Origin: a virus
Taxonomy: Duplodnaviria; Heunggongvirae; Uroviricota; Caudoviricetes
Strand: one strand, 5' to 3'
Virus record (IMG/VR): IMGVR_UViG_3300018065_000012
DNA: 64,000 nt
Under the pieces are notes generated by a model. That model was not told the origin of the DNA, made no database searches, and saw only the letters and a list, made by a program, of their open reading frames with translations. A program made the translations under genes and the position numbers. Below are positions 8,285 through 30,833 of this stretch, one piece after another (position 1 is the stretch's first letter; each line of letters opens with the position of its first letter).

Positions 8285-8499
8285 GACAATTGAGCAAAAA
8301 GGTTTGCAAAGGTTGCCGCAAACAATATGGCTGGGCGTGGTATGAAGACATTGAAAGGGCTTGGAACAAGGAAGGGAAAATAGTTTGTCCTGCGACCTTA
8401 AGGCCAGACGACCCTCATGCAAATGATATTTCTGAAGGACCGCCTGAGTTTTGTCCGTTTGTTCTCGAACACTTGTTGGAATTGCAAGATGTTAAGTAG
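8281..8499 (+). CDS. Array unit
   Basis: LSKKVCKGC..PPEFCPFVLEHLL. Confidence 0.85.
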   Translation: MRQLSKKVCKGCRKQYGWAWYEDIERAWNKEGKIVCPATLRPDDPHANDISEGPPEFCPFVLEHLLELQDVK

Positions 8500-8692
8500 A
8501 AAGATTTGCATACAATGTCAAGGGGATGATTGGTTCGACTATGACGACATGTGTTGGAGGAAGCATGAAACGGTTCATTGTATGCCCCAAAGGAGAACGC
8601 TTGAAAATTATTTTGGAACAAATGTAAAAGGGCCAGCTCCAGATTGGTGTCCTTTTGCTCTTGAACATTTGATGGAAGCTCAAAGATGTTAA
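8489..8692 (+). CDS. Array unit
   Basis: MLSRKICIQC..APDWCPFALEHLM. Confidence 0.85.
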   Translation: MLSRKICIQCQGDDWFDYDDMCWRKHETVHCMPQRRTLENYFGTNVKGPAPDWCPFALEHLMEAQRC

Positions 8693-8883
8693 GCAAGGAG
8701 ATTTGTAAAAAGTGCATAAATTCAGAAGACAAATGGGACAAATATGATGAAAAGAATTGGAAGAAATTTTGCGAAGTAATTTGTCTGATAGGCCACGAAG
8801 GACGCCCTGATAATATAAGCATAAAAGAGGAACCGCCGGAGAATTGTCCTTTTACTTTGGAACATATTATGGAAACGCAATGA
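8686..8883 (+). CDS. Array unit
   Basis: MLSKEICKKC..PPENCPFTLEHIM. Confidence 0.85.
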   Translation: MLSKEICKKCINSEDKWDKYDEKNWKKFCEVICLIGHEGRPDNISIKEEPPENCPFTLEHIMETQ

Positions 8884-9164
8884 AACGCTGCTGTGCAACA
8901 TGTGACATGTTTCCAACTTGCGCTATTGCAAGAAACTATATAAAACATACTGACTGGACGAGGGTCGGCGGAAGTTGTCTTGAATGGTCAAACAAAGATT
9001 TTTTTGAAAGCGCTGAGCGGAATATAGAAATTTGCAAGAAGTGTGAAGAAACGAAAATGACTTACAATTGCTGGATGCATTGCTACGTTGCTGACTTGGA
9101 TACTATTCCGCGTGATTGTCCGTTTTTCCTTGAGCAATTTATGAGTAAGAAAAATGCTGAGTAA
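8880..9164 (+). CDS. Array unit with an extra Cys-rich N-terminal segment
   Basis: MKRCCATC..EICKKC..IPRDCPFFLEQF. Confidence 0.75.
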   Translation: MKRCCATCDMFPTCAIARNYIKHTDWTRVGGSCLEWSNKDFFESAERNIEICKKCEETKMTYNCWMHCYVADLDTIPRDCPFFLEQFMSKKNAE

Positions 9165-9390
9165 AAAGATATGTCAGAAGTGTTACGAATATTACGATTG
9201 GCCTTGGGAAAGCGCACAAAACAATTTGATGGTTCCAAGAGACGATGGTCCACCGTGGCGCACAAGTCAAAGAATAATGTGTCTTTCAAGAGAAACGTTG
9301 CCACTACATATTGCGCGGACAAACGAGCCGCCACCGGAATGGTGCCCGTTTTCTTTGGAACATGTTTTGGAAATGCAAGATGGATCATGA
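9154..9390 (+). CDS. Array unit
   Basis: MLSKKICQKC..PPPEWCPFSLEHVL. Confidence 0.85.
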   Translation: MLSKKICQKCYEYYDWPWESAQNNLMVPRDDGPPWRTSQRIMCLSRETLPLHIARTNEPPPEWCPFSLEHVLEMQDGS

Positions 9391-9556
9391 CAAAATTGAT
9401 AGAAAGATTTGCGGAAGCTGTAAAAATGTGTTCAAACTTCATCGTGGAGGCATGGAAATTGCCATTTCGTGTCCGGTGTTTGAAAAGCATTGTCCATATG
9501 CTCTTGAATTGTTGATGCTGAAAGAGAAAAGAGATGCTGAGCAAAGACATCTGTAA
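9380..9556 (+). CDS. Array unit (LEL type)
   Basis: DRKICGSC..HCPYALELLM. Confidence 0.75.
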   Translation: MDHDKIDRKICGSCKNVFKLHRGGMEIAISCPVFEKHCPYALELLMLKEKRDAEQRHL

Positions 9557-9845
9557 ACGCTGTTACGAACGGCAAGGTTATATTTGGGAAGTGTCGTGGA
9601 TCAGGGGAGTCAGATTTCCTCGACATCATGATGCTGAAAAATATTGGAAGAAAGAGAGTGCGGTCAAGTGTCCGTGTCGCCACAAAGATGACCCAGAAGG
9701 ATACAAGCCCATTGCAGGGAAATTTAGCATTGAAGGAAATCCACCAGAGCATTGCGTTTATGCTATGGAGCATATTATAGCTACAGGGCATTATGACCCC
9801 AAGTTGCCAATTGAGAATATACCACCAATGGAAGCAGAATGGTAA
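9534..9845 (+). CDS. Array unit
   Basis: MLSKDICKRC..PPEHCVYAMEHII. Confidence 0.85.
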   Translation: MLSKDICKRCYERQGYIWEVSWIRGVRFPRHHDAEKYWKKESAVKCPCRHKDDPEGYKPIAGKFSIEGNPPEHCVYAMEHIIATGHYDPKLPIENIPPMEAEW

Positions 9846-10171
9846 TGTACGACCCTTGGAAACAACACGAGTGTCATTATTGCAAAGAGAAGTTTCACGA
9901 CCTTCAAAAACATTATGACGAATGCGAAATCAGGCGCAAAGCCTATTGCGCGGAAGCATGTAAGAATTGTTTTGCGGAAAAGACAGTAATAAAACCGCAA
10001 ACAAAAGCTACAAAGGAAAGCTTGCTCTTTATACTTATTTGGAATCCAATGTTGCTTGGAATCCCTTACGGATGTCCGGCTTGTAATCATTTGACCAATT
10101 GGGAACCGCCAAAACATTGCGTGCTTTCAAAACGGTTTGTTCAAAAGCTTTTGGCTGAGAGAAAGAAATGA
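9839..10171 (+). CDS. Cys-rich hypothetical protein, possibly a divergent array relative
   Basis: CHYC..CKNC..CPAC..EPPKHC. Confidence 0.6.
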   Translation: MVMYDPWKQHECHYCKEKFHDLQKHYDECEIRRKAYCAEACKNCFAEKTVIKPQTKATKESLLFILIWNPMLLGIPYGCPACNHLTNWEPPKHCVLSKRFVQKLLAERKK

Positions 10172-10386
10172 CGTATCAAATACCAAAACAAGTTCATCTT
10201 GATTTGGACTTGTTGATTTGTTACAGCAAATGTAAGCGCAGTTTGAAAGTGCGGCCATTTTCAGGAGTGATTTGTGTTGAAGATTCTTCAACTTCTTATT
10301 ACATGGAATATGATGAGCCGTTTACAAACCCGCCAAAGTGGTGTCCATTTGTTCTCGAACATTTGTTGAGCAAACAAAATGGATAG
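10168..10386 (+). CDS. Array unit
   Basis: ICYSKC..PPKWCPFVLEHLL. Confidence 0.8.
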   Translation: MTYQIPKQVHLDLDLLICYSKCKRSLKVRPFSGVICVEDSSTSYYMEYDEPFTNPPKWCPFVLEHLLSKQNG

Positions 10387-10570
10387 ATGTTATTTTTGCG
10401 ATTGTGAATCTGAAAAGCAAGTATGCGGTTTTTGGTTATGCCCGCATTGTGAGAAGAAATACAGCGCGTCATACTTGAGGCGTTTGTATCATGCGCTTTG
10501 GCCTTGGAGATTCGATGCTGTTAAGTGTAGCTTCCTTTTGGAACACTTGATGGAGACTCAAAATGACTGA
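10379..10570 (+). CDS. Zinc-ribbon protein ending in the array C-terminal motif
   Basis: CYFC..CPHC..KCSFLLEHLMETQND. Confidence 0.7.
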   Translation: MDRCYFCDCESEKQVCGFWLCPHCEKKYSASYLRRLYHALWPWRFDAVKCSFLLEHLMETQND

Positions 10571-11441
10571 TAGAATGGACGCTACGGACATTGGCATGAA
10601 AAGGTTTCCATTGTCTAACAAAGGCGACTTGGACATCTGTTTCATAGGCGTGGGAGCTGCTTTTGCAAAGACGATGCACCAAACCAACTTTATCATCGTC
10701 AAAGGCAACAGGCATATCCTCGTTGATTTTGGGATGACTGGCCCTCGGGCGTTGCGAGAATCTGCTTTCCTTGACCCTTCTGACATTGAATTGCTGTTGC
10801 CAACTCATTCGCACGCAGACCACGTTGGGGGTATTGAATGTCTTGCGTTGATGAATCGTTACGTTGGCCGCAGGCATCTGAAGAAGCGCAAGCTACGTAT
10901 GATTGTCACTGAAGCGTATCAGAACACGCTTTGGGATCAAACGCTACGCGGTGGTCTTGAGTGGAACGAGATGGATGATAATTCCGGTCAGAAGTTGGAC
11001 TTCACCGACTTCTTCGACGTCATTCGTCCAACGTGGAAGAAGAAGCAACCACGCGAGATTTTTGAGGTTGAGATGGACACGGGTCTTGGTACAAAACTCA
11101 AGATTGAGCTTTTCCGCACGAAACATATTCCAGAACAATCTGGCTCGTGGGAAGAGTCATTCATCAGCTACGGGCTGTTTATTGATGACCGCATTTTCAT
11201 TTCAGGCGATACACGTTTTGACCCGGAACTCGTCGAGATGTATGGCGACAGGTCAGAAGCGATGTTTCATGATGTGCAGTTCTTTCCGGGAGCCGTACAC
11301 GCTCCGTTGGCTGATATCAAAACGTTGCCGGGAAAGTACAAGAGCAAGATGATGCTCATACATTACGCGGATAATTGGAAAGAACAAGACATCACAGACT
11401 TTGCGGGGTTTGCTCGCGAAGGACAAGCTTATAGGTTTTGA
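10563..11441 (+). CDS. apyc1: MBL-fold metallo-hydrolase, Apyc1-like (candidate anti-Pycsar cyclic-nucleotide phosphodiesterase)
   Basis: THSHADHVGG MBL motif, plus GxGxAFxK, LWxxxLxGGL, DTxFD, FHDxQFFxGxVHAxL and HYxDN blocks, which match my recollection of phage Apyc1. Confidence 0.75.
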   Translation: MTDRMDATDIGMKRFPLSNKGDLDICFIGVGAAFAKTMHQTNFIIVKGNRHILVDFGMTGPRALRESAFLDPSDIELLLPTHSHADHVGGIECLALMNRYVGRRHLKKRKLRMIVTEAYQNTLWDQTLRGGLEWNEMDDNSGQKLDFTDFFDVIRPTWKKKQPREIFEVEMDTGLGTKLKIELFRTKHIPEQSGSWEESFISYGLFIDDRIFISGDTRFDPELVEMYGDRSEAMFHDVQFFPGAVHAPLADIKTLPGKYKSKMMLIHYADNWKEQDITDFAGFAREGQAYRF

Positions 11442-11443
11442 AA

Positions 11444-11668
11444 ATGCTGAGTAAAGAAGTCTGTAAAAGATGTTTCAATGCTGAAAAGGAAATATTGCGA
11501 CATTGGAACGTCGAATATGACGAATTCAACTGGAAACACGGAAGCGTCAATTGCCGAGCCGCAATACACCGTTGGATAGGGGATGCAGGAGTCAGTATTC
11601 AAGGTAATCCACCGCCTGAATGCCCGTTTCCTTTGGAACATTTGTTGGATACGCAGGATGCTGAATAA
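11444..11668 (+). CDS. Array unit
   Basis: MLSKEVCKRC..PPPECPFPLEHLL. Confidence 0.85.
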   Translation: MLSKEVCKRCFNAEKEILRHWNVEYDEFNWKHGSVNCRAAIHRWIGDAGVSIQGNPPPECPFPLEHLLDTQDAE

Positions 11669-11864
11669 AGAGATTTGTATGCAATGTGTTGAGAAAAGCG
11701 AACATATGCTGCCTCCGGGTTGGCGCGGACTGGACGAAGAAATCTGGCGCAAGTGGAAGTCAGTGCGGTGCGATGCTGCGGGCGGGTGGTATGAATACAA
11801 AAAGAAGCCGCCAAAGAATTGCCCTTATCTCCTTGAGCATCTGATGAAAAGACAAAAATGCTGA
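11658..11864 (+). CDS. Array unit
   Basis: MLNKEICMQC..PPKNCPYLLEHLM. Confidence 0.85.
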   Translation: MLNKEICMQCVEKSEHMLPPGWRGLDEEIWRKWKSVRCDAAGGWYEYKKKPPKNCPYLLEHLMKRQKC

Positions 11865-12184
11865 GCATGAAAGTTTGTAGAAAATGCCGAGACTGCGATG
11901 ATGATTCAAGCGAGATGATTCATCGTTGGTTTCATTTTGGCCGGTCGCCCTGCGGGGACGACACATATGGGCCACCTAATGTGAAAGAGTGTGATTATCA
12001 TTTGGAGCATTTGATAGCTATGCAAAACATGTTTCCAAAATTTGAACTCAACAAAACGGTTTGTAAGAAATGTGAAGTCAAAGATTGCACTGTGTTCAAA
12101 TGGCCAACCAGCTTGAGGCCAGAGGTAATGCATGTGCTTTGTGATTATCATTTGGAGCATTTGGTGAGTGGAAATGTTAAGTAA
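11858..12184 (+). CDS. Two array units fused in one ORF
   Basis: KVCRKC..ECDYHLEHL, then NKTVCKKC..LCDYHLEHL. Confidence 0.8.
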   Translation: MLSMKVCRKCRDCDDDSSEMIHRWFHFGRSPCGDDTYGPPNVKECDYHLEHLIAMQNMFPKFELNKTVCKKCEVKDCTVFKWPTSLRPEVMHVLCDYHLEHLVSGNVK

Positions 12185-12383
12185 AAAGGTTTGCATAGCT
12201 TGTATCAAAAGGGGTCTTGGTTTTGATATTTCCACAGACAGCCTTGAAAAAGACTGTTACGAAGAATGGTGGTTAAAAACGCCCAAATGGTATTGCTATA
12301 TCTGCGAACGGTGGATTTTTCGGAAAGGAAAACCGCCGAAGGAATGCGAATACATTCTGGAGCACTTAGTAGATGTTAAGTAA
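12174..12383 (+). CDS. Array unit
   Basis: MLSKKVCIAC..PPKECEYILEHLV. Confidence 0.85.
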   Translation: MLSKKVCIACIKRGLGFDISTDSLEKDCYEEWWLKTPKWYCYICERWIFRKGKPPKECEYILEHLVDVK

Positions 12384-12603
12384 AGAGATTTGTAAACAAT
12401 GCTGCAACGAACAACAGCGACGTTCCAAAATTCGCAATTGGAACGTGTGGAGCAACAGCGATGAAACACGATGGGCAAACGGTGAAATCTATTGTCGGTT
12501 TTTCTTTTGGAAGATTCCGCTTACGTTCCATACAACAACGTCGTCGCCTAAACACTGCCCTTATCATCTTGAGCACTTGATGGAGTCGCAAGTTGTTGAG
12601 TAA
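12373..12603 (+). CDS. Array unit
   Basis: MLSKEICKQC..SPKHCPYHLEHLM. Confidence 0.85.
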   Translation: MLSKEICKQCCNEQQRRSKIRNWNVWSNSDETRWANGEIYCRFFFWKIPLTFHTTTSSPKHCPYHLEHLMESQVVE

Positions 12604-12853
12604 AGCGGTTTGTAAATATTGCCGCAGCAAATATAGCCCTGTTTGGAAGTGGCAGGCGTGTGATGATCTGAGTTGGCGTACTTTTGAAATGATCAGATGT
12701 CCAGAAATGAAGTTGAGGGGTGGCTTGTCAAACAACGGAACGTGGGCATGGCCAAAAACGCCCATTGACAAAATACCGGATGAGTGCCCTTATCATTTGG
12801 AGCACCTGATGGAAAACAGTCGGCCAAAGCCAAAGCGGATTGAACGATGCTAA
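12593..12853 (+). CDS. Array unit
   Basis: MLSKAVCKYC..IPDECPYHLEHLM. Confidence 0.85.
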   Translation: MLSKAVCKYCRSKYSPVWKWQACDDLSWRTFEMIRCPEMKLRGGLSNNGTWAWPKTPIDKIPDECPYHLEHLMENSRPKPKRIERC

Positions 12854-13047
12854 ACAAAAAGGCTTGTAAAACTTGTCGCGGAGATTTTTGGGATAAGCAC
12901 GACGAATATTGGTGGCAAACAGGCCACATGACTTGTCGGTATATTCCCAAAGGCAATTGTAACAATTTGATTGATATTGATAAGCCTCCGCCAGAGAAGT
13001 GCGAATACTGGCTGGAGCATTTCATGGAGAATCAAGGTGCTCAGTAA
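12847..13047 (+). CDS. Array unit
   Basis: MLNKKACKTC..PPEKCEYWLEHFM. Confidence 0.85.
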   Translation: MLNKKACKTCRGDFWDKHDEYWWQTGHMTCRYIPKGNCNNLIDIDKPPPEKCEYWLEHFMENQGAQ

Positions 13048-13243
13048 ACAAGTTTGCAAACATTGTAAGAATTCTACTGTTCATAATAAATATGGCGAAG
13101 CTTCTAACCGTATGTGGGTGTTTGATAAAATAGTTTGGTGTCCACTTAGAAAAAAAGGCGGTGCGCGACATACAGATGTTGAAAAACCTCCTCCAGAGTG
13201 GTGTCAATATCAACTTGAGCACTTGATGAAAACACAAAGATGA
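13037..13243 (+). CDS. Array unit
   Basis: GTG start; LSKQVCKHC..PPEWCQYQLEHLM. Confidence 0.8.
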   Translation: MLSKQVCKHCKNSTVHNKYGEASNRMWVFDKIVWCPLRKKGGARHTDVEKPPPEWCQYQLEHLMKTQR

Positions 13244-14094
13244 TTCCAGAGAAAGATAGAAAACGATTCTTATCAAAAGTCAAGCCTCAAGGGGAATGTT
13301 TGATCTGGACTGGGAGGCCCAATCACTTTTTCTTTCAAAGCGAAAGAGGGAACAGCGTAATCAGAAGACCAAGGAATGTTCTTTTTGAACTTGTAACAGG
13401 TAAAAAAATCAATAACAGAAAGTTTTTCATCACGTGTAAGAATTCAAATTGCATACGACCAGAGCATATGCGTTTTGGCAACGAAAATATTGAAAAAGAT
13501 TTTTGGGAAAAGGTTGAAAAGGAAAATGATTGTTGGGTTTGGACTGATAAGACGATGAGATTCATACGGATCGGGGGGAAAACTTCGCGCCCCAGCCGGA
13601 TTGCTTGGGAAATGTTGCGCGGCCCTATTCCAAAGAATTATATTCTGACACAGGTATGTGGGAACAAAAGATGTGTAAGGCCAGATCATTTGCTATGTTG
13701 TACACGGTCTGATTTCTTAAAGTTGTTTGTCCCTAACATTGGAGCGCCGAAGAAGCCAAGCACGAAAATGGAACGGCTGCAAAAATCAAAGTATAAACGC
13801 CTTTGTGAATCAGAAATCCGTGAAGTTTATGAGATGAGAAAAGCAGGAAAATCACAAAAGGAAATTGCTGATCATTTGAGCGTGACTGAAGCGGCTGTTA
13901 GTAGGTGGTGCAGAAAACTCGGTTTCAAAAAGCAAGATATCAAATTGACGCCAAGAAAAATGAGGACTATTCAGAAACACTGGCAGGCTGGAAAGACTGC
14001 CCGTTGGATTGCCAAACGGGTGAACCTTTCGAATTGCACGATCTATTTTGCGCTTAAAAAATTGAAAGCAGAAGGAAAGATCAGTGTTGAGTAA
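13240..14094 (+). CDS. HNH (His-Me finger) endonuclease-like protein, tandem domains plus C-terminal HTH
   Basis: CLIWTG..CKNSNCIRPEH and CWVWT..CGNKRCVRPDHL; SQKEIADHLSVTEAAVSRW HTH. Confidence 0.8.
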   Translation: MIPEKDRKRFLSKVKPQGECLIWTGRPNHFFFQSERGNSVIRRPRNVLFELVTGKKINNRKFFITCKNSNCIRPEHMRFGNENIEKDFWEKVEKENDCWVWTDKTMRFIRIGGKTSRPSRIAWEMLRGPIPKNYILTQVCGNKRCVRPDHLLCCTRSDFLKLFVPNIGAPKKPSTKMERLQKSKYKRLCESEIREVYEMRKAGKSQKEIADHLSVTEAAVSRWCRKLGFKKQDIKLTPRKMRTIQKHWQAGKTARWIAKRVNLSNCTIYFALKKLKAEGKISVE

Positions 14095-14365
14095 AAGCAT
14101 CTGTATCAAATGCCCGTGGGCGCGCACCAAAGGAAGCGAGTTGATACCAGACCATACCCCTGAGAAGTGGTTGAAAAAATTTGATCAGATGTGGGATCAT
14201 TCACATTGGGAAAAATCCAATCGTTTATCAGGATATACGGGTACCTTATGTAGCTATAGAATAAAAGAAAGCAGGCCCATTGGAACTGATTCAGAAATAC
14301 CTTGTTACTGCCCTTACGTTTTGGAGCACTTGATGACTCAGAAAGGAAGTTCAAATGGCGGCTAA
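14084..14365 (+). CDS. Array unit
   Basis: MLSKSICIKC..IPCYCPYVLEHLM. Confidence 0.85.
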   Translation: MLSKSICIKCPWARTKGSELIPDHTPEKWLKKFDQMWDHSHWEKSNRLSGYTGTLCSYRIKESRPIGTDSEIPCYCPYVLEHLMTQKGSSNGG

Positions 14366-14864
14366 GCGAAAACACTTTGTTGATTTCTTCAGTCCCGGAA
14401 CGTTTGCGGCTGAAGGTAGCAGACGATCAATTCCTTCTTGGGATACCGCAAAGGCAGTCAAGATAGCAAAAAAGATTAAAGAGCGTCATGGCGCAGTGCC
14501 ATATTGCTTTTGCTTTGTAACGTATATTTGCGCTGATCCAGTTTCAGACGGTGAAGGCGGCAAAATGGAAGTGAAGCCGAAAGAAGTTGAACGAAGTGGG
14601 ATGTATTATCTCACTGGTGAAATTTTGAAATACGATGACATCCCAGAAAATGAAGACAATCACATTTTGCGGTCAAATATGCGGTGTAATGATAATCCTG
14701 TTTCTGTTGTAAATACTAACTCGTACAAATGGACTGCGAATTTCAACAAGGATGATGTTATTGTGGACGACAAGGGGAAAGTCGTTCGTTGTGGTAGTGA
14801 TGACGACATCAGGAAGTATCGTGAACAGAAAATCAAGGAGTTCAAAGCAAGCTATGCTGAGTAA
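14355..14864 (+). CDS. Hypothetical protein
   Basis: 169-aa coupled ORF. Confidence 0.7.
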   Translation: MAAKRKHFVDFFSPGTFAAEGSRRSIPSWDTAKAVKIAKKIKERHGAVPYCFCFVTYICADPVSDGEGGKMEVKPKEVERSGMYYLTGEILKYDDIPENEDNHILRSNMRCNDNPVSVVNTNSYKWTANFNKDDVIVDDKGKVVRCGSDDDIRKYREQKIKEFKASYAE

Positions 14865-15042
14865 ATCAGTTTGCCAAAAGTGTGAAATGTTCAAGACCAA
14901 GTGTTTGAATTGTCAAAGGGACAACTGTTGGGCTTGTAAAGGAACAAGTCATACTCTTCAAAGGGATTTCGATGTTCCAAAGGGCTGTCCTTATGCGCTC
15001 GAACATCTCATGAAAACGCAAGCAAGCGGTGCGACAAAGTGA
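14854..15042 (+). CDS. Array unit
   Basis: MLSKSVCQKC..VPKGCPYALEHLM. Confidence 0.85.
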   Translation: MLSKSVCQKCEMFKTKCLNCQRDNCWACKGTSHTLQRDFDVPKGCPYALEHLMKTQASGATK

Positions 15043-15074
15043 TGAGCGAAAGGGTTTGTAAAAGTGCTGAGTAA
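15039..15074 (+). pseudogene. Array-unit remnant (N-terminus only)
   Basis: VMSERVCKSAE*, joined straight to the next junction. Confidence 0.6.
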
Positions 15075-15363: not shown

Positions 15364-15375
15364 GGAGACAACTTC

Positions 15376-17064: not shown

Positions 17065-17089
17065 ATTTTTCTCACTTCTTCTCAATAAA

Positions 17090-17169: not shown

Positions 17170-17418
<249 letters not shown>

Positions 17419-22670: not shown

Positions 22671-22681
22671 CAGGATTCAAA

Positions 22682-23189: not shown

Positions 23190-23224
23190 AATTTTTCACT
23201 CCTCGATTATTAAAGGCAAAAATT

Positions 23225-23313: not shown

Positions 23314-23336
23314 AACTCGCGAGACGGAGTTTCGGA

Positions 23337-23942: not shown

Positions 23943-24217
23943 ACAAAAGTTTCTGTAAAAAATGCCGCACCAGAGCCTACGAACAAGCATGTGAATATGA
24001 ATGGCCTAAAAACGTTGCGTTGATTTTCAAATGGACTGAAGAAAGCGATGAGGAATGGAACAACAAAACGGTTTATTGCCTTTGGAGACACGCTGACAAT
24101 ATCAAACGAGGCGAGACGACTGAAAGGCATGAAGCGTTTGTTTCGACAAAACAAAACGCACCGAATGAATGTCCATTTGTCTTAGAGCACTTTATGGAAG
24201 CTCAAAACAATGCTTAG
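23936..24217 (+). CDS. Array unit
   Basis: MLNKSFCKKC..APNECPFVLEHFM. Confidence 0.85.
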   Translation: MLNKSFCKKCRTRAYEQACEYEWPKNVALIFKWTEESDEEWNNKTVYCLWRHADNIKRGETTERHEAFVSTKQNAPNECPFVLEHFMEAQNNA

Positions 24218-24392
24218 CAAAAAGATATGCCAACGGTGTCAGCATTTCAGCCAGTTCTTGGGCGAGGAACAGCAGGATAGTTGGGAATGTAATGCGTTCA
24301 TATATTCCTTCAAAATGTGTAGAAAGGCTAACTCGGCTCCCGATTGGTGCCCTTATCAATTGGAGCACCTGATGGAAAATCAAGTACAATGA
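24210..24392 (+). CDS. Array unit
   Basis: MLSKKICQRC..APDWCPYQLEHLM. Confidence 0.85.
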   Translation: MLSKKICQRCQHFSQFLGEEQQDSWECNAFIYSFKMCRKANSAPDWCPYQLEHLMENQVQ

Positions 24393-24568
24393 AAATTTGC
24401 ATCTTACATTGCTGGAAAGAAAAGATCATCAAAGGCAAATGGCCCATCGACCTTCACGGAGGAATTGCAAAAAGAATTTGCAATCGTTGTGACAAAACAC
24501 AATACACTAACGGTTATACTCCTTGGAAGTGGTTTGAAACGTTAAAGGAAGCTCAAAATGCTGAGTAA
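24389..24568 (+). CDS. Small hypothetical cargo protein ending in the array junction
   Basis: MKICILHCW..RICNRC..KEAQNAE. Confidence 0.6.
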   Translation: MKICILHCWKEKIIKGKWPIDLHGGIAKRICNRCDKTQYTNGYTPWKWFETLKEAQNAE

Positions 24569-24764
24569 AGAAATTTGTATGAACTGTGAAAGGCTTGTCC
24601 TTACTTCGCGGGACAGGTTGACGCCTTTTTCTGAAAAAGCTTTTTGTAATGTCGTAACGCTCAGAAACCGAATATCCGAGATGAAAACTGCTCCAAGCTA
24701 TTGTCCTTTTGTCCTTGAACACCTGATGGAGAATCAAGATGGAAATGAGAATCGAAATGCTTGA
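24558..24764 (+). CDS. Array unit
   Basis: MLSKEICMNC..APSYCPFVLEHLM. Confidence 0.85.
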   Translation: MLSKEICMNCERLVLTSRDRLTPFSEKAFCNVVTLRNRISEMKTAPSYCPFVLEHLMENQDGNENRNA

Positions 24765-24894
24765 AATGCATGTGAAAGAACTCGAAAGAATAACAGCCAA
24801 ACAAACTGAATTGATCGATGCGTTGATTGAAGAACATAACAAAAAGCCCCTTGCCCGACAAATTGCAAGGACTGCTGAATTCTTGAAAGAGTGA
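24757..24894 (+). CDS. Small helical hypothetical protein
   Basis: 45 aa, coupled; not in ORF track. Confidence 0.5.
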   Translation: MLEMHVKELERITAKQTELIDALIEEHNKKPLARQIARTAEFLKE

Positions 24895-24895
24895 A

Positions 24896-25129
24896 ATGCT
24901 TAGCAAACAGATATGTCAACAATGCTGGAAGAAAATAATGTCTGGGAAAATAACGCTCTGGGATTTTTCCAAAACGAATTTCAACAAATATACGTGGGGC
25001 CGCTGGTCTGTCAATTGCCCTTTCGACCATAGCCGAAAACAAGGCGGTGCTGTGGCGATGAGGTTTAGACCACCACCTGACTGGTGTCCTTACGCTCTTG
25101 AGCACTTAATGGAAACGCAACAATGCTAA
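24896..25129 (+). CDS. Array unit
   Basis: MLSKQICQQC..PPDWCPYALEHLM. Confidence 0.85.
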   Translation: MLSKQICQQCWKKIMSGKITLWDFSKTNFNKYTWGRWSVNCPFDHSRKQGGAVAMRFRPPPDWCPYALEHLMETQQC

Positions 25130-25352
25130 GTAAACAAGTGTGTCAAGCATGCCTGAAAAACCATGCTGTCACAGGTTGGACAAAAACAGATGAGGCTCAC
25201 TGGGAAGAAAAGCAAGAAATATGCTGTCCTATTCAATTTACATTCAGGTTTCCATCTAACATGGTTTTACGCCGAAGAAAAAGTTTCTGGCAAGACCTCA
25301 ATGGTGTCCTTACGCTCTTGAGCACTTAATGGAAACGCAAAATGCTGAGTAG
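25123..25352 (+). pseudogene. Frameshifted array unit
   Basis: MLSKQVCQAC in one frame, PQWCPYALEHLMETQNAE in another. Confidence 0.7.
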
Positions 25353-25411
25353 AAGCATCTGTCGATAAGCCGCCACACTATTGCCCGCACAAAACTGAAA
25401 TGGTGAAGTGA
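25342..25411 (+). pseudogene. Array-unit remnant with the variable core deleted
   Basis: MLSRSICR* joined out of frame to DKPPHYCPH. Confidence 0.65.
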
Positions 25412-25609
25412 ATGCTGAGCAAAGCAATCTGTAAACGATGCCCCGATGCAAAAGCCCTGCGGTGGGATGGTAGAGTGTGGAGATGTCACAACACAAACGT
25501 CGCCAGAAGATTCATAGGAGGATATGTTGTTGTCACTGAATTCTTTGAAGTTTCCGACCAATGTCCATATTCTTTAGAACACCTATTGAAAATGCAGAAA
25601 CAATGTTAA
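25412..25609 (+). CDS. Array unit (shares its 3' half with 26353-26631)
   Basis: MLSKAICKRC..VARRFIGGY..SDQCPYSLEHLL. Confidence 0.85.
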   Translation: MLSKAICKRCPDAKALRWDGRVWRCHNTNVARRFIGGYVVVTEFFEVSDQCPYSLEHLLKMQKQC

Positions 25610-25824
25610 GCAAAGCGATATGTCAACGGTGCTATAAATCTTTCAATCATCAATGGTTTAGAATTGATGAGGTTTTTGGAAATGGAAAAGCGTTGACGCC
25701 TGATTTGCGTTGGAAACAAGGATTCGTTTCTTGTTTCACGTATCGTAGAAGTATTCGGCGTTCACCGCCTGTTCGATGTCCTTTTGTTTTAGAACATCTG
25801 ATGGAAACTCAAAGCAATGCTTAG
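25603..25824 (+). CDS. Array unit
   Basis: MLSKAICQRC..PPVRCPFVLEHLM. Confidence 0.85.
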   Translation: MLSKAICQRCYKSFNHQWFRIDEVFGNGKALTPDLRWKQGFVSCFTYRRSIRRSPPVRCPFVLEHLMETQSNA

Positions 25825-25996
25825 TAAAGAAATCTGTGAACAATGTGAGCACAGTCATCATCCTTTGACCGGAACAAAGCGACCAAAGAAGGAAAGAGGA
25901 GGCATAGTCTGTTACCCAACAATAGACGAGTATGTACCCGTCTGGTGTCCATATAGTCTCGAACACCTTTTGGAAAATCAAAGTCATGCTGAGTAA
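25817..25996 (+). CDS. Array unit
   Basis: MLSKEICEQC..VPVWCPYSLEHLL; below cutoff. Confidence 0.8.
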   Translation: MLSKEICEQCEHSHHPLTGTKRPKKERGGIVCYPTIDEYVPVWCPYSLEHLLENQSHAE

Positions 25997-26219
25997 TAAA
26001 ATATGCTTGAAGTGCAAAAGGTATGGCCAGTGCCCAATTGAAGGTCGATGGTTTTGGGGCAAAAGTGAAAAGAAGACAAACACAGAACTTGAAAATGAAA
26101 CACTTACTGAATGCCCATATTCTTTGGAACATCTAATGAAGGTGCAAAATGCTGAACAAAGGCGTATGCAAAACATGTTGGAAAAGTGCCAGAGGCGAAT
26201 GGTCTCGCGAAGCAGATAA
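25986..26219 (+). CDS. Array unit
   Basis: MLSNKICLKC..TECPYSLEHLM. Confidence 0.8.
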   Translation: MLSNKICLKCKRYGQCPIEGRWFWGKSEKKTNTELENETLTECPYSLEHLMKVQNAEQRRMQNMLEKCQRRMVSRSR

Positions 26220-26349
26220 AGAATGGAACAATGGAATTACTATTTGTCCCTATACGATCAAAGGAATTGCTCCTTGCGCAACTTCTATCATGGTGAAAGT
26301 TGCTCCCAAATGGTGTGATTATTCTCTTGAACATTTGATGGAAGCATAA
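26149..26349 (+). CDS. Array unit
   Basis: MLNKGVCKTC..APKWCDYSLEHLM. Confidence 0.85.
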   Translation: MLNKGVCKTCWKSARGEWSREADKEWNNGITICPYTIKGIAPCATSIMVKVAPKWCDYSLEHLMEA

Positions 26350-26352
26350 ACA

Positions 26353-26631
26353 ATGCTTAGTAAAACTGTCTGCCAGAAATGTGACTACTACAGAGAGTTG
26401 CTCCTAACTGCGTGGGAAAAGAAAATTTGGCCGAGTAGTAGAATTTGGAAATGTTATAACACAGGCGTCGCCAGAAGGTTCATAGGAGGATATTTTGTTG
26501 TTGCTGAATTCTTTGAAGTTTCCGACCAATGTCCGTATTCCTTAGAGCATCTAATGCAAAATGATAAAAATCGAGCGAAACAAAAATGCTCAGTAGAAAA
26601 ATCTGTGAAAAGTGCGAGCATTACAGAGTGA
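26353..26631 (+). CDS. Array unit (shares its 3' half with 25412-25609)
   Basis: MLSKTVCQKC..VARRFIGGY..SDQCPYSLEHLM. Confidence 0.85.
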   Translation: MLSKTVCQKCDYYRELLLTAWEKKIWPSSRIWKCYNTGVARRFIGGYFVVAEFFEVSDQCPYSLEHLMQNDKNRAKQKCSVEKSVKSASITE

Positions 26632-26774
26632 GATATTCAGTTACGTTTTGGGTTTGTGAATGTCCACCCTCAAGCAAACGTTCCCTTTTAACATGCTACA
26701 AAACGTCCTTGCCGCCTGCTCATTGTCCTTTTGCCTTAGAACATGTAGTTGAAACGCAAAATGATGTTGAATAA
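26586..26774 (+). CDS. Array unit
   Basis: MLSRKICEKC..PPAHCPFALEHVV. Confidence 0.85.
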   Translation: MLSRKICEKCEHYRVRYSVTFWVCECPPSSKRSLLTCYKTSLPPAHCPFALEHVVETQNDVE

Positions 26775-27003
26775 AGAAGTCTGTAAAAAATGCTGGAGAA
26801 AAATGGGCCGAAAGAGTTGGACCAAGTATGATGAAAAATACTGGAACAAAGGAGAGTTTGATTGCCCCTTGTTTTCAGAAAGCGGAGAATTTACGGAAGA
26901 CAAAGAGTTTGACGGCATAGACCCAAAAAAAGGTCCGCCTGATAATTGTCCATATAGTCTCGAACATCTTATGAGAACGCAAAATGCTGAAAGGACAACA
27001 TGA
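26761..27003 (+). CDS. Array unit
   Basis: MLNKEVCKKC..PPDNCPYSLEHLM. Confidence 0.85.
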   Translation: MMLNKEVCKKCWRKMGRKSWTKYDEKYWNKGEFDCPLFSESGEFTEDKEFDGIDPKKGPPDNCPYSLEHLMRTQNAERTT

Positions 27004-27482
27004 TAACCTTCAAGAAAAATCAGTATGATAACCAAATGGATTCAGAAGTCATTGAACTGTGTGACGCCATGAACTGTATGCCCGGCATCAGAACAACGGG
27101 TTCCTGCTGCGGACACGGAAAAGAACGGCTGATGATTTTCTTCGAAGTGCGTGATCCTGTTGTTGGCATATTCTTCATGGCCCGATGCGTCGATAAGAGA
27201 TATTTCAAGCATGGAGATACTTGGGACATAAGAATAACAGTGGGTGACACAATTGGCGATGGTGGATACTTGCCGACTGCCTACGTGCTGGAAAGCACGC
27301 ACAAAGGCGAGGAAGCATACAAGGAAGCAAAAGATTTGGTTGCAAATATCGTCCAACATTTGAACCATAAAAATTTCCTAAAAGGCTACTTCATTGACCT
27401 CGGCAAGTTTGACGTTGAAGGTGAAGAACTCGGTGATGACTGGTGGGAAGTAATACAGAAGGCGACAAAAAATGCTGAGTAA
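27000..27482 (+). CDS. Hypothetical cargo protein
   Basis: LCDAMNCMPGIRTTGSCCGHG motif; ends KNAE at a junction. Confidence 0.7.
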   Translation: MITFKKNQYDNQMDSEVIELCDAMNCMPGIRTTGSCCGHGKERLMIFFEVRDPVVGIFFMARCVDKRYFKHGDTWDIRITVGDTIGDGGYLPTAYVLESTHKGEEAYKEAKDLVANIVQHLNHKNFLKGYFIDLGKFDVEGEELGDDWWEVIQKATKNAE

Positions 27483-27657
27483 AGCAATCTGCCAACGTTG
27501 TAATAAACATGATGGCTACGATAACTGGATGTATGATTATACTCTAAAAGAATGGGCCAGAGGAGTCTTGTTCCCATGTAAGACTGATTGGTTTCATAGC
27601 TCAAAGTCGCCACCTGACTGCTGCCCATATTCTTTGGAACACCTAATGAAAAATTGA
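27472..27657 (+). CDS. Array unit
   Basis: MLSKAICQRC..PPDCCPYSLEHLM. Confidence 0.85.
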   Translation: MLSKAICQRCNKHDGYDNWMYDYTLKEWARGVLFPCKTDWFHSSKSPPDCCPYSLEHLMKN

Positions 27658-27667
27658 GCGAAACAAA

Positions 27668-27865
27668 ATGCTCAGTAGAAAAATCTGTAAACAATGCACG
27701 TATTATCTGTACAGGGAAAAGTACCACTGGGATAAATTCTGGTGGTGCCGGTTTGCTGGAGTGGCAGATTCTGTCGATGACCCTCCCAATGAATGCCCAT
27801 ATACTCTGGAGCATCTAATGACAAAAATCAAGAGAAAACAAAATGCTGAACAAAGCAATCTGTAA
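27668..27865 (+). CDS. Array unit
   Basis: MLSRKICKQC..PPNECPYTLEHLM. Confidence 0.85.
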   Translation: MLSRKICKQCTYYLYREKYHWDKFWWCRFAGVADSVDDPPNECPYTLEHLMTKIKRKQNAEQSNL

Positions 27866-28067
27866 ACAGTGCTGGAAAAAGCAATGGAACTCAACAAAGG
27901 ATAAAACATGGAGCTGCCGCCTTGATAAACCCGGTGGCTTTGGAGTGTATACTCAATATGATACCAACAGTGAAATCCCTGATAACTGCCCGTACATCTT
28001 AGAGCACTTGATGCAAAATCACCAAAAATCGAGCAACATTTTTCTCAACCCTCCTCAAGAAAAATAG
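27843..28067 (+). CDS. Array unit
   Basis: MLNKAICKQC..IPDNCPYILEHLM. Confidence 0.85.
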   Translation: MLNKAICKQCWKKQWNSTKDKTWSCRLDKPGGFGVYTQYDTNSEIPDNCPYILEHLMQNHQKSSNIFLNPPQEK

Positions 28068-28118
28068 CAAAAATCAAGCGATTTAATTGTATAATTAACC
28101 AAGTGATCGTGTCTTCAA
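28031..28118 (+). promoter_or_regulatory. Internal array promoter module (near-identical to 23225-23313)
   Basis: About 89-bp near-identical copy containing TTGTATAAT. Confidence 0.7.
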
Positions 28119-28150
28119 CGAAAGGCTCAAAGAGTTGAAAGGAGAGAAGT

Positions 28151-28354
28151 ATGACGGATGAACAAAAAGCTGCTTATATTTTCGCTCAGGCTTCTTGTGC
28201 CTTGATTCAGGCGATGGGCGCTTTTTCAGAAAATATGCAACGCAATCGCTTGGGACAATCTGTGGCTTATGACGAAAATGCGTTTCAAGGAATTATCCAA
28301 GAATATGGCATCCATCACAATGCAACTATAGGACTGTTTCACGAGTTGCCATAA
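28151..28354 (+). CDS. Hypothetical protein
   Basis: AAAGGAG RBS directly after the promoter module. Confidence 0.7.
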   Translation: MTDEQKAAYIFAQASCALIQAMGAFSENMQRNRLGQSVAYDENAFQGIIQEYGIHHNATIGLFHELP

Positions 28355-28406
28355 CGTCTCTCCGTTTCAAAGATAAAAGCCAATATGCAAAATCGAGAGC
28401 AAAGAA

Positions 28407-28613
28407 ATGCTGAGTAAAAAAGTCTGTAAAAAATGTTGGGCCAAAATTGGCGTAAAATGGGGTTCTTATAGACAAAAAGAATGGTGTTGCTCCGACCGTT
28501 GGAAAAGGGACATTGAAATTGTGTTTTTGACGAAGGAAAGCAATCCTCCGAATAAGTGCCCCTATACTCTCGAACACCTTATGCAAAATCAAGAGAAAAT
28601 AAATGCTGAGTAA
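28407..28613 (+). CDS. Array unit
   Basis: MLSKKVCKKC..PPNKCPYTLEHLM. Confidence 0.85.
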   Translation: MLSKKVCKKCWAKIGVKWGSYRQKEWCCSDRWKRDIEIVFLTKESNPPNKCPYTLEHLMQNQEKINAE

Positions 28614-28833
28614 AGCTATATGCCAGCAGTGTGAACACAGGGTCAGAGCGGGTAGATGGAATGACACGGCTGAGAAAGAGTGGGAGCAGGGGAAAGTGCA
28701 TTGTCATCATAAGCCGATAAAGGAAGCCCGAAATTTGTTCGATTTTTACACGGTCGAAGTAAACGAAATTCCTGATTGGTGCCCATACAGTTTAGAACAC
28801 CTGATGGAAACGCAAAATCGCGAGAAAAACTAA
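28603..28833 (+). CDS. Array unit
   Basis: MLSKAICQQC..IPDWCPYSLEHLM. Confidence 0.85.
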   Translation: MLSKAICQQCEHRVRAGRWNDTAEKEWEQGKVHCHHKPIKEARNLFDFYTVEVNEIPDWCPYSLEHLMETQNREKN

Positions 28834-29025
28834 ATGCTAAGTAAAAAAGTCTGCCAAAAATGTAAGTGCTTTCAAAAAGTCAGAGGAAAACCGAAAAGTT
28901 TCGAGTGGTGGTGTAGTACTGTCGATGATTCCAGCTATGGTATTGCGATGCATCGCAATGCTAATCCAAAACACGGATGCCCTTACGCTTTAGAGCATCT
29001 ACTGGAAACGCAAAATGCCAAGTAA
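28834..29025 (+). CDS. Array unit
   Basis: MLSKKVCQKC..KHGCPYALEHLL. Confidence 0.85.
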   Translation: MLSKKVCQKCKCFQKVRGKPKSFEWWCSTVDDSSYGIAMHRNANPKHGCPYALEHLLETQNAK

Positions 29026-29245
29026 AAAAATCTGTAACAAATGTGAGTACTATTACGGAAGTTCAATTAACGGAAAATCTTGGTCATGCGAAAAAATAGG
29101 AACTATCGAACAACGAAGTAAATTGTACCGATGCCCTTATGAACTCGAACACCTAATGCAACTTCAAAGGCCCATGCAAATGCATGATGCTTCAGAAATT
29201 ATCTATGTTGCAATATGTCGTAATCGCGAGAAAAAACCGCTGTGA
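29015..29245 (+). CDS. Array unit
   Basis: MPSKKICNKC..YRCPYELEHLM. Confidence 0.85.
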   Translation: MPSKKICNKCEYYYGSSINGKSWSCEKIGTIEQRSKLYRCPYELEHLMQLQRPMQMHDASEIIYVAICRNREKKPL

Positions 29246-29448
29246 CTTTTCAAATTTTTACTACCCAAATGTGCGGCATGAAACCAATCAAAGCAATCTG
29301 TAAAAAATGCAAACAATACGAAGACCCTGCGTTTGGGTTCGTCGGATGGACGTGCGGAAACTTCCACCTGATGCCAGATGACGAAATCCCAAACGACTGT
29401 CCATTCGCTCTCGAACACCTGATGGGAACGCAAAGCAATGCTGAGTAG
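29242..29448 (+). CDS. Array unit
   Basis: KAICKKC..IPNDCPFALEHLM. Confidence 0.8.
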   Translation: MTFQIFTTQMCGMKPIKAICKKCKQYEDPAFGFVGWTCGNFHLMPDDEIPNDCPFALEHLMGTQSNAE

Positions 29449-29605
29449 AAAAATCTGCGAAAAATGCGAACATGCAAGATTCTCATTTGGGCTTGTAGGA
29501 TGGTTGTGCGTTAAACACTATGCTATGCCCAATGATAAAACCCCTGACCAATGCCCTTTTATCTTGGAGCACTTAATTCAAAATGACAAAAATCGAGAGA
29601 AATAA
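29438..29605 (+). CDS. Array unit
   Basis: MLSRKICEKC..TPDQCPFILEHLI; below cutoff. Confidence 0.8.
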   Translation: MLSRKICEKCEHARFSFGLVGWLCVKHYAMPNDKTPDQCPFILEHLIQNDKNREK

Positions 29606-29826
29606 TGCTGAGTAAACAGGTATGTCAAATATGTCTTAAAAAAAGGCCAAACCATCGCTGGAGCAAAGCGGATGAATTACAATGGGGTAAAGGAAAGTTT
29701 ATCTGTGTCGTGAGATATAGAAAACTTAAACTCACCGTAGAACACTCTGTCAATGATTTACCACCAAATGATTGCCCGTATTTCCTTGAACACCTTATGC
29801 AAATCAACAAAAATCGAGCGAAATAA
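29605..29826 (+). CDS. Array unit
   Basis: MLSKQVCQIC..PPNDCPYFLEHLM. Confidence 0.85.
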   Translation: MLSKQVCQICLKKRPNHRWSKADELQWGKGKFICVVRYRKLKLTVEHSVNDLPPNDCPYFLEHLMQINKNRAK

Positions 29827-30042
29827 ATGCTGAGTGAAAAAGTCTGTAGGAAATGCAAACATTATGAACCGGCTAAAGTGCTTCTCAAAAAAAATCATTG
29901 GTGGTGCTGGAGAAAAGGAAAATCACCGGAAAGGGCAACATTAACAGGCGTTGCAGCAACAGTGGCTACAACTTGCCCATACTATCTTGAGCACCTTGTA
30001 GCTACCCAAAAAACCGAAACCCGTGAGAAAAAAACGTCGTGA
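29827..30042 (+). CDS. Array unit
   Basis: MLSEKVCRKC..TTCPYYLEHLV. Confidence 0.85.
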   Translation: MLSEKVCRKCKHYEPAKVLLKKNHWWCWRKGKSPERATLTGVAATVATTCPYYLEHLVATQKTETREKKTS

Positions 30043-30096
30043 CCTTTCAAATTTTTTATATCAACCACCCGCACAAAGGAGCGGTGCTAAAACCAA

Positions 30097-30297
30097 ATGC
30101 TAAACAAAACGGTGTGTAATAAATGCAAGCATTCATATCATACTGACAATAGACTATGGGTGGAATGGCTCTGCTGTGTTGTCCCTAATTCCGTAACCAG
30201 CCGATGGGTTACAAAAGCTACACCAATACCAAAACGGTGCCCCTTTAGCCTTGAGCATGTTTTACAAAATGATAAAAATCGAGCAAAAAATCTGTAA
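30097..30297 (+). CDS. Array unit
   Basis: MLNKTVCNKC..IPKRCPFSLEHVL. Confidence 0.85.
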   Translation: MLNKTVCNKCKHSYHTDNRLWVEWLCCVVPNSVTSRWVTKATPIPKRCPFSLEHVLQNDKNRAKNL

Positions 30298-30445
30298 CCA
30301 GTGTAAATGGTTCAAAATGTTAGAGACACAACGCTGGTGTCTTTTTCCAGAAGGCTGGTATAATCTGACTAAACGGATTGTATTACCTCACAGTTATTGC
30401 CCGTTTACTCTTGAGCATCTAATGCAAAATCGAGAGCAAAATTAA
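30269..30445 (+). CDS. Array unit
   Basis: EQKICNQC..HSYCPFTLEHLM. Confidence 0.8.
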   Translation: MIKIEQKICNQCKWFKMLETQRWCLFPEGWYNLTKRIVLPHSYCPFTLEHLMQNREQN

Positions 30446-30646
30446 ATGCTGAATAGACAGCTATGTCAAAAATGCCCAGAGTGTTCTGGCGGACAATGGC
30501 ACTCCGACACACTGAAAGTAACAATAACGTGTTATGTGAAACACCCTGAAGCAAATAATAGCCCTGTGTTCCTTAGCTCAGAAGATAATCCTCCGTCAAC
30601 GTGCCCTTTTATCCTTGAACATCTAATGACAAAAATCGAGCGATAA
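30446..30646 (+). CDS. Array unit
   Basis: MLNRQLCQKC..PPSTCPFILEHLM. Confidence 0.85.
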   Translation: MLNRQLCQKCPECSGGQWHSDTLKVTITCYVKHPEANNSPVFLSSEDNPPSTCPFILEHLMTKIER

Positions 30647-30647
30647 A

Positions 30648-30833
30648 ATGCTAAGCGAACAAATATGCCAAAAATGCAAATACTATTTCCATAGCTACTA
30701 CAACCGCAACTACTGGCCTACTGTCTGGTACTGCCGTGCTCTCGGAGCTGCAAACTGTGAAAGTAATCCACCTGATAATTGCCCGTACACCTTGGAACAT
30801 TGTATTGCAAAAACAGAGAACAAAATATGCTAA
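30648..30833 (+). CDS. Array unit
   Basis: MLSEQICQKC..PPDNCPYTLEHCI. Confidence 0.85.
   Translation: MLSEQICQKCKYYFHSYYNRNYWPTVWYCRALGAANCESNPPDNCPYTLEHCIAKTENKIC

Follow-up and report, generated by a model that had tools for sequence, protein, structure and literature searches.

Gene junctions in a tandem array of small cysteine-rich genes of a large uncultured phage: protein motifs, overlapping stops and starts, and the cassette question

Introduction

How are about one hundred tiny genes, arranged in tandem on one strand, delimited from each other and translated? This question is raised by the IMG/VR virus record IMGVR_UViG_3300018065_000012 (Caudoviricetes), of which a stretch of 64,000 nucleotides (nt), called the window below, has been analyzed. 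Its + strand carries from position 1 to ~33400 (1..33387) about 100 tandem paralogous genes encoding proteins of 48–110 amino acids (aa), as delineated with regular expressions and maps of open reading frames (ORFs). An initial annotation of positions 8440-30660, that is, of the core of the array, suggested that the repeated junction between these genes does three jobs at once, encoding a conserved C-terminal motif, supplying the ribosome-binding site (RBS) for the next gene and providing an overlapping stop and start, and that its homology makes the array an integrase-free cassette system. On balance, we favor the reading that the junction comprises two protein motifs standing back to back between members of a very large and old tandem family, and is not one DNA element.

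Results

Protein family and conservation of the C-terminal motif

The proteins of the array begin with M-L-S/N-K-x-I/V-C-x-x-C, followed by a middle Cys, and end with P-x-x-C-P-Y/F-x-L-E-H-L-M-E-T-Q. In the alignment of 47 units, residues C7, C10, C33, C54, and E59 are invariant, and His is present in at least 90% of the units. With these features, the units fit a Cys4 mini-protein family of uncultured large phages, characterized by N-terminal CxxC, a middle Cys, and C-terminal C-P-[YF]-x-L-E-H within ~50–110 aa; arrays of the same family are present in other metagenomic contigs. No family of Pfam or PHROG fits the array units. No cultured phage was matched among 50,697 phage records, either in a tblastn search with one unit or in megablast and blastn searches with two window segments, and an exact-protein look-up of one unit returned no record. 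The DNA motif pattern searched in IMG/VR matched one locus, and an IMG/VR search with the Apyc1-like protein encoded in the window found no relative. In the confident AlphaFold model of unit 8686-8883 (predicted local distance difference test score, pLDDT, 90.2), LEHIMETQ forms a terminal helix (residues 57–64), so that the predicted C-terminal core carries the fourth invariant Cys and this helix; a fold search with the model, done against PDB only, gave nothing at E ≤ 0.001. With more than 100 copies and an unmatched fold, the family is of wider interest.

The conserved C-terminal motif, the first of the proposed jobs, is borne out. Over 92 units the residue counts along the motif are C 92, Y/F 92, L 89, E 92, H 76, L 68, M 52, E 38, T 29, and Q 62, the Cys, the aromatic residue, and the first Glu being invariant. 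The protein-motif pattern TGYCCNTWYNNNYTNGARCAY has 65 matches against 0.01 expected, and the final 24 nt of the initially proposed nucleotide consensus are found with at most three mismatches at eight sites, the chance expectation being zero. The repeated junction is real, but its consensus is idealized.

Third codon positions of the motif do vary freely, as had been noticed. Its Leu codons (TTG 33, CTT 29, CTC 13, TTA 10, CTG 4) are used at near-background frequencies, and the choice among synonymous codons for the motif Leu, Cys, Pro, and His is much the same as in gene bodies. Moreover, in a logo anchored at the next ATG, information is concentrated at +1 to +12 and at the CxxC codons, and no upstream position exceeds 0.63 bit. 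These distributions indicate that the C-terminal motif is kept by selection on protein, not on DNA, with synonymous sites saturated.

Overlaps between neighboring genes

In 41 of 60 adjacent family pairs, the upstream stop codon lies 1–14 nt past the next ATG, the overlap classes being –11 (17 pairs), –7 (9), –4 (7), –8 (4), –14 (3), and –1 (1). The remaining pairs are spaced by 0 to +3 nt (7), overlap by 17–46 nt (7), or have gaps of 10–54 nt (5). The overlapping stop and start thus stands as proposed, yet the overlap of ~11 nt, the commonest class, accounts for 17 of the 60 pairs only. The next ATG lies from 1 nt before to 5 nt after the end of the motif Gln codon in 35 of the 60 pairs, with 0–5 A-rich bases between the C-terminal motif and the next gene's start; and an upstream ORF of at least 40 codons ends between –25 and +14 at 78 of 92 family starts. 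Neighboring units use all three relative reading registers.

The positions of the upstream stops follow from the start word ATG-CTG-AGT-AAA. Among 92 units, it provides a stop in the +1 frame at nt 5–7 in 58 units and at nt 2–4 in 14 more, and a stop in the +2 frame at nt 9–11 in 40 and at nt 6–8 in 12; the codons are TGA or TAA at nt 5–7, TAA, TAG or TGA at nt 9–11, or TAG at nt 6–8. Since the start word has stops in both other frames, an upstream gene arriving in any register ends 4–14 nt past the next ATG. These stops explain the odd –11 and –7 overlaps, and the first four codons of a unit double as the terminator of any upstream gene, whatever its frame.

The ends of the upstream proteins are shaped in the same way. 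In the –11 class the tail has the form x-[A/V]-[E/K/Q] and is set by the downstream Leu codon, CTG yielding AE, TTA yielding VK, and TTG yielding VE. The literal ending ...TQNAE* (asterisk, stop), which the initial annotation took as part of the consensus, occurs in one or two junctions; the upstream stop does lie within the next start, while the tail is an out-of-frame reading of ATG-CTG-AGT-AAA. Embedded non-family genes share such tails (…YAE*, …KNAE*, …SVE*, …QTC*). As the tails track the next Leu codon and are carried by non-family genes too, e.g., …KNAE* by the gene at 27000..27482, the 'NAE*' and 'C*' endings are by-products and not a family motif; annotators should not regard 'NAE' tails as belonging to the protein family.

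The same architecture is seen in unrelated metagenomic phage arrays, where –7, –11, and –4 overlaps occur in 13, 12, and 6 of 55 adjacent pairs, respectively. The overlapping layout as such is of a known kind, that of co-directional overlapping genes. The array departs from it in that one conserved four-codon start word, repeated about 100 times, gives rise to the unusual –11 and –7 overlaps and closes upstream genes whatever their frame.

The array behaves as a single uninterrupted chain of ORFs that closely abut each other. No fewer than nine of its links are non-family genes, Apyc1-like, HNH, and NUDIX genes being examples, which overlap their neighbors on one or both sides. The ATG of each such gene is its own and in most cases forms part of an ATGA at the upstream stop. 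Hence the suggestion that any fragment dropped between two junctions is automatically translated by coupling is half sustained: inserted genes share the overlaps and their coupling is plausible, but 'automatic' is an overstatement, as each supplies its own start codon.

Composition and synonymous bias of the start region

Positions –6 to –1 relative to the ATG contain 52% A, compared to 32% overall, and the motif Gln is encoded by CAA in 51 of 62 cases (82%) against the background of 59% (p = 8e-5). Junction RNA folds at –7.3 kcal/mol, compared to –10.6 kcal/mol in gene bodies. Selection just upstream of the ATG does appear, from these base frequencies and folds, to take the form of A-richness and low structure. 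A conserved RNA hairpin at the junction was considered and rejected, the folds being no more stable than those of shuffles (z = 0.09).

Codons 2–4 are biased as well. At codon 2, CTG encodes Leu in 46% of units, compared to 11% in gene bodies (p = 6e-14), and CTG together with CTA is also enriched in the arrays of other phages; NTR codons comprise 59 of 71 at this position, compared to 67% in the background (p = 0.002). Ser at codon 3 is AGT in 65% vs. 42% among AGY codons (p = 6e-4), and Lys at codon 4 is AAA in 90% vs. 69% (p = 4e-4). This synonymous bias suggests some RNA-level selection on the start region, including that for keeping a +1-frame stop.

As a null model for off-frame stops, codons 2–6 were recoded synonymously by the codon usage of gene bodies, with Ser and Arg held to AGN, and stops within 14 nt of the ATG were counted in 92 window units and 113 units from other phages. 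Stops in the +1 frame are found in 74 of 92 window units (62.9 ± 3.9 expected) and in 96 of 113 units of other phages (77.7 ± 4.3 expected, z = 4.3). For the +2 frame, the window has 55 of 92 (48.2 ± 4.4 expected). Both frames are closed in 39 of 92 window units (24.6 ± 4.2 expected, with the maximum of 37 in 1000 replicates), while in other phages this number, 37 of 113, is close to the expected 35.5; at internal codon positions, both-frame stops are found in 2.4%. It seems, therefore, that the overlap is mostly passive but not entirely so, and the excess is solid for the +1 frame alone.

A stronger reading is that the start word, i.e., the A-rich leader with ATG-CTG-AGT-AAA, is an RNA-level control element under synonymous-site selection, acting either as a frame-independent stop trap or as a shared operator; we regard this as unlikely, at perhaps one chance in several. 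If it were true, a stop trap would maintain coupling along a chain of one hundred genes in the face of constant indels and insertions, and a shared operator would let one factor switch the whole family together.

The first version, a frame-proof stop trap, has codons 2–4 of each unit maintained as nucleotide sequence such that upstream ORFs, whatever their frame, are closed right behind the next ATG, which would preserve coupling and prevent run-on fusion proteins despite frequent 1–2-nt indels and insertions in a fast-changing array, and would be an organized use of off-frame 'hidden' stops. It accords with the number of both-frame stops in the window, higher than in all 1000 recoded replicates, with the codon bias at Leu2, Ser3, and Lys4, with the occurrence of neighbors in all three registers, and with the +1-frame excess that repeats in the 113 units of other phages. 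In the latter, however, the +2-frame stop is depleted (47 of 113 vs. 62 ± 4.8 expected) and both-frame stops are at expectation. Moreover, common ancestry of start codons may contribute to the bias; the preference for CTG over TTG at codon 2 is not accounted for by off-frame stops, for which TTG would do just as well; and in 12% of pairs the upstream frame extends 17–46 nt into the next gene, no harm being evident. We thus hold the trap to be possible but doubtful.

Considerably less probable is the second version, where the leader with AUG-CUG-AGU-AAA forms an RNA operator at which one phage translational repressor or enhancer switches the whole family, presumably in a manner similar to T4 RegA, which acts on many early mRNAs. 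Such an operator would fit the synonymous bias beyond protein need (CTG, AAA, CAA, and the A-rich leader), the recurrence of the start word in arrays of other phages, and the single-stranded state of the start region in the folds; but the bias is modest at most positions, and a general start-context preference could account for it. A candidate RNA-binding regulator did not emerge either, no search having been aimed at one.

Shine-Dalgarno sequences and the probable mode of translation

The second of the proposed jobs, an RBS (GGAG or GGAA) supplied by the M-E codons of the motif, found no support in the analysis. Of the 92 units, 38 have M-E, with Glu encoded by GAA in 28 of them and by GAG in 10, which makes 26% GAG compared to 25% in the background (p = 0.49); for the same Glu in arrays of other phages the counts are GAA 19 and GAG 11, the background being 39% GAG. 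No GGA is found between –20 and –4 at 42 of 92 family starts, and GGAG is rare. The mean pairing energy with the anti-Shine-Dalgarno (anti-SD) sequence at coupled family junctions is –4.3 kcal/mol, compared to –4.0 kcal/mol after synonymous recoding (p = 0.09) and –3.8 kcal/mol for random 22-mers from the array. Pairing is stronger at those family starts that lack the end of an upstream ORF in their vicinity (–6.4 kcal/mol, p = 0.008), and at non-family genes of the phage, preceded by AAAGGAGG-like motifs, it reaches –8.3 kcal/mol. Hence a Shine-Dalgarno (SD) sequence inside the upstream gene, common though not indispensable in SD-using bacteria, is not seen before the downstream start (–4.3 vs. 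–8.3 kcal/mol), and the data lend no support to the M-E codons as its source. The specific example put forward initially, at 10554-10565, does have GGAG 7 nt before an ATG, with coordinates shifted by 2 nt, and the gene downstream is Apyc1-like rather than an MLSK unit.

The array is probably read as long polycistronic transcripts. An intergenic repeat in three copies (Table 1), 83–92% identical and spaced by 5–6 kb (17.1, 23.3, and 28.1 kb), combines a T-rich stretch with an extended –10 element, and is probably a phage promoter heading sub-operons of at least 20 genes; downstream of two copies, an SD-bearing gene start is found within ~50 nt. Sigma-70-like promoters and terminators are no commoner in the array than in shuffles.

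Within such transcripts, the first cistrons would initiate by SD and the later ones by termination-reinitiation at the 1–14-nt overlaps. A ribosome terminating just past the next ATG would reinitiate there, aided by the A-rich unstructured start, and post-termination ribosomes are said, with reference to Adhin and van Duin in 1990, to search in both directions over such distances. The geometry suits this scheme, as the upstream stop on the same strand is located 1–14 nt past the downstream ATG in 41 of the 60 pairs and at 0 to +3 nt in 7; published reporter work shows that termination-reinitiation couples only genes that overlap or are very closely spaced, and that gene pairs differ in how far they depend on SD (Huber et al., 2019, PMC6728339; Huber et al., 2023, PMC10666635). 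We infer from this layout that the chain is probably translated by termination-reinitiation coupling. In this way, a giant phage can pack, and probably express, ~100 tiny genes without individual RBSs.

Several points weigh against this picture of a chain of protein motifs translated by coupling. The case for coupling is made from gene geometry alone. In most SD-using bacteria, reinitiation at overlaps also gains from SD (PMC6728339), and the reporter work cited above used –4 and –1 overlaps, not those of 7–11 nt (PMC6728339, PMC10666635). SD-poor junctions could therefore mean low or uneven translation instead of efficient coupling. The anti-SD sequence was an assumed one, the AAAGGAGG motifs before non-family genes backing the choice. 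Twelve of the 60 pairs have their own stop before the next ATG, and in seven the upstream gene runs 17–46 nt into the next one. To these one should add, from the preceding section, the +2-frame excess that is not repeated in other phages and the CTG preference that stops do not explain.

The question of recombination at the junctions

Homologous recombination needs an exact match of roughly 20–30 nt. Mean DNA identity of the junctions is 57% over the C-terminal 45 nt and 66% over the N-terminal 30 nt; the median length of the longest exact match between two junctions is 8 nt, matches of at least 20 nt occur in 2 of 1378 pairs, and those of at least 25 nt in none. The junction flanks are thus neither long nor identical enough, and the '~60-bp imperfect homology' supposed to template recombination fails at this point. 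Synonymous-codon identity between units is 0.44–0.50, with a weak neighbor effect in the C-terminal motif only (0.49 vs. 0.44, p = 0.015) and no homogenization of N-terminal codons among neighbors (p = 0.5). These values show the units to be old paralogs without concerted evolution.

Variation among assemblies is equally scarce. An exact look-up of the Apyc1-like protein led to copies of the same phage only, and nine other assemblies carrying its gene match the window without gaps along up to 20.9 kb, with identities of 99.94% or more; the long contig pieces of four other runs in the region 8440-28400 are identical to it, with no unit-level change where the array is covered. Most contig joints were discounted as rearrangements, their 23–36-nt sides being other family copies that match short junction stretches. 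The single well-supported joint, 23260->28066, seen in two runs, lies in the 38-nt exact core of the intergenic promoter-like repeat, outside the coding junctions. Either it reflects a variant with a deletion of 4.8 kb, or it may have arisen in assembly, since a 38-nt exact repeat exceeds the assembler's word.

Breakpoints of the few older events, a small sample, fall partly at junctions and partly elsewhere. The former are represented by the copy at 25082/25302 and the whole-unit duplicate at 17418 and 20011; the latter, by 23260/28066, by a shared half-body at 25470/26438 that starts mid-body, and by an indel of ~330 nt, with its ends ~18 nt inside two ORFs, relative to a related phage contig (L037). 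Only a handful of L037 units are orthologous to those of the window, and between two conserved anchors L037 has one unrelated unit where the window has two.

The tri-functional junction whose ~60-bp homology drives duplication, deletion, and swapping as integrase-free cassettes, i.e., the scheme of the initial annotation, is very unlikely, even though two of its three jobs hold, the overlaps extend to the non-family genes of the chain, one recent junction-only copy (39 nt exact, 25082/25302) joins unrelated bodies, neighbors have 24 nt of the C-terminal motif exactly in common at 20441/20635 and 11990/12140 and show a slightly higher C-terminal synonymous identity, and the related phage differs in unit number between orthologous anchors: against it stand the absence of GAG enrichment (10 of 38 vs. 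25%) and a pairing energy equal to the recoded null, the poor homology with no exact match of 25 nt, the N-terminal codons that are not homogenized, the identity of nine assemblies and of the pieces from four runs, the position of the only well-supported structural-variant candidate in the promoter-like repeat, and the indel and half-body breakpoints inside genes.

Returning to the favored reading of back-to-back protein motifs, we infer that tandem duplication, divergence, and decay built up the array, and that unrelated genes with an ATG of their own were inserted in it from time to time; these ordinary processes suffice, and junction-guided recombination is not needed. Two attractive ideas, an RBS within a protein motif and an integrase-free cassette system, are left without support.

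Known counterparts of the array

Termination-reinitiation gene pairs (Huber et al., 2019, PMC6728339; Huber et al., 2023, PMC10666635) resemble the array in that the genes are on the same strand, the upstream stop is at or just past the downstream start, long chains lack intergenic space, and coupling is the expected benefit. Unlike these pairs, where –4 and –1 overlaps are near-universal, the array has modal overlaps of –11 and –7, which are determined by the four conserved codons that open each of ~100 copies of a single paralog family; moreover, the SDs at array junctions are weak, though the phage has strong SDs elsewhere.

Integron gene-cassette arrays (attC, IntI) are similar in having short diverse genes on the same strand, a recurring boundary, and unrelated cargo interspersed. 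The array differs from them in that its units are paralogs of one family and its boundary is conserved as protein and not as a DNA site, with 57–66% identity and no conserved fold. A conserved DNA recombination site with structure was not found at the boundaries, given free third positions, at most 0.63 bit upstream of the ATG, and folds at z = 0.09. No integrase was found among the 20 ORFs scanned against Pfam.

Off-frame 'hidden stop' codons are the subject of the ambush hypothesis, reportedly put forward by Seligmann and Pollock in 2004. As this hypothesis has it, stops in non-coding frames of the array starts are above the synonymous expectation; unlike hidden stops, they are concentrated in the first 12 nt and end the normal frame of a neighbor rather than frameshifted ribosomes, and are solid for the +1 frame only.

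Bacillus phage G has a lineage-specific expansion of a zinc ribbon protein in ~35 copies (Iyer et al., 2021, PMC7824862), and among the expansions of small Zn-binding proteins described for jumbo phages this one comes closest. In both cases a jumbo phage carries very many copies of a small Cys-rich, probably zinc-binding protein; the copy number of the array is ~3 times higher, and the tblastn search of phage records with an array unit gave no match.

Mapped features and minor observations

Among the non-family genes of the window are those for an Apyc1-like MBL hydrolase, an HNH endonuclease, CobT/AAA (CobS-like), Pol X, and DNA ligase. Coordinates of individual junctions, inserted genes, and rearranged units are summarized in Table 1.

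Table 1. Junctions, inserted genes, repeats, and rearranged units mapped in the window.
Feature	Position	Strand	Comment
Junction of the –11 class, C-P-F-S-L-E-H-L-M-K-V-Q-N-A-E*	19382..19429	+	Variant upstream unit 19232-19429; next ATG-CTG-AGT-AAA at 19419
Junction nearest the initially proposed consensus, …EHVVETQNAE*	19770..19818	+	Next unit from 19808, 11-nt overlap
Example of the –7 class, …LEHLMETQC*	23475..23516	+	Stop TAA from CTA+A of the next unit's start, 23510
Example of the initial annotation, GGAG at 10552-10555, 7 nt before ATG 10563	10552..10570	+	Next gene overlaps the upstream unit's stop by 8 nt
Apyc1-like MBL hydrolase gene, downstream at the same example	10563-11441	+	Non-family, not an MLSK unit
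HNH endonuclease gene within the chain	13240..14094	+	Start overlaps the upstream stop by 4 nt (ATGA); end in TAA of the next VLSK start (–11)
Non-family gene, 169 aa	14355..14864	+	Overlaps both neighbors in the –11 manner; its …YAE* end falls within the start of the next unit
Non-family gene, 160 aa	27000..27482	+	ATGA start on the upstream stop; ends …KNAE* inside the next unit's start
Dual-specificity phosphatase-like (PF00782) and two NUDIX genes embedded in the array	5669-6355, 7461-8045, 20666-21112		Pfam marks on identical contigs
Promoter-like intergenic repeat, three copies	23217..23313 (+), 17065-17132, 28023-28118		T-rich stretch and extended –10 TGTATAAT
Recent partial duplication and decay	25075..25368	+	C-terminal motif/junction copy, 39 nt exact (58 nt at 93%), at 25082 and 25302; unit bodies unrelated
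Decay products beside the 25082/25302 copy	25123-25411		Unit 25123-25352 frameshifted, C-terminal motif in another frame; truncated 8-codon start remnant 25342-25368
Fused double unit	11858..12184	+	One ORF with two C-terminal motifs; 24-nt exact repeat at 11990 and 12140

The terminal sub-array at 31610-33164 consists of shorter units where C-P-Y-x-L-E-L replaces L-E-H and the MLSK start is absent; they are joined mostly by ATGA or –14 overlaps. As this sub-array lacks MLSK and yet overlaps, the habit of overlapping outlasts the MLSK word.

The gene at 1940-2184 of L037 corresponds to 9839-10386 in the window, being a single gene composed of the first six codons (MYDPWK) of 9845-10171 and the body of unit 10168-10386. 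The difference is either a gene-sized insertion in the window or a deletion-fusion in L037.

Units 17425-17697 and 20017-20286 are ~80% identical in DNA, and both have a C-terminal extension ending in a run of Arg (RRRRRR), unlike other units. Directly upstream of unit 17425, positions 17361-17424 are occupied by an (AAGC)n tetranucleotide microsatellite of ~16 copies, which is read as (QASK)n within the ORF 17152-17418, and contigs of other runs break there.

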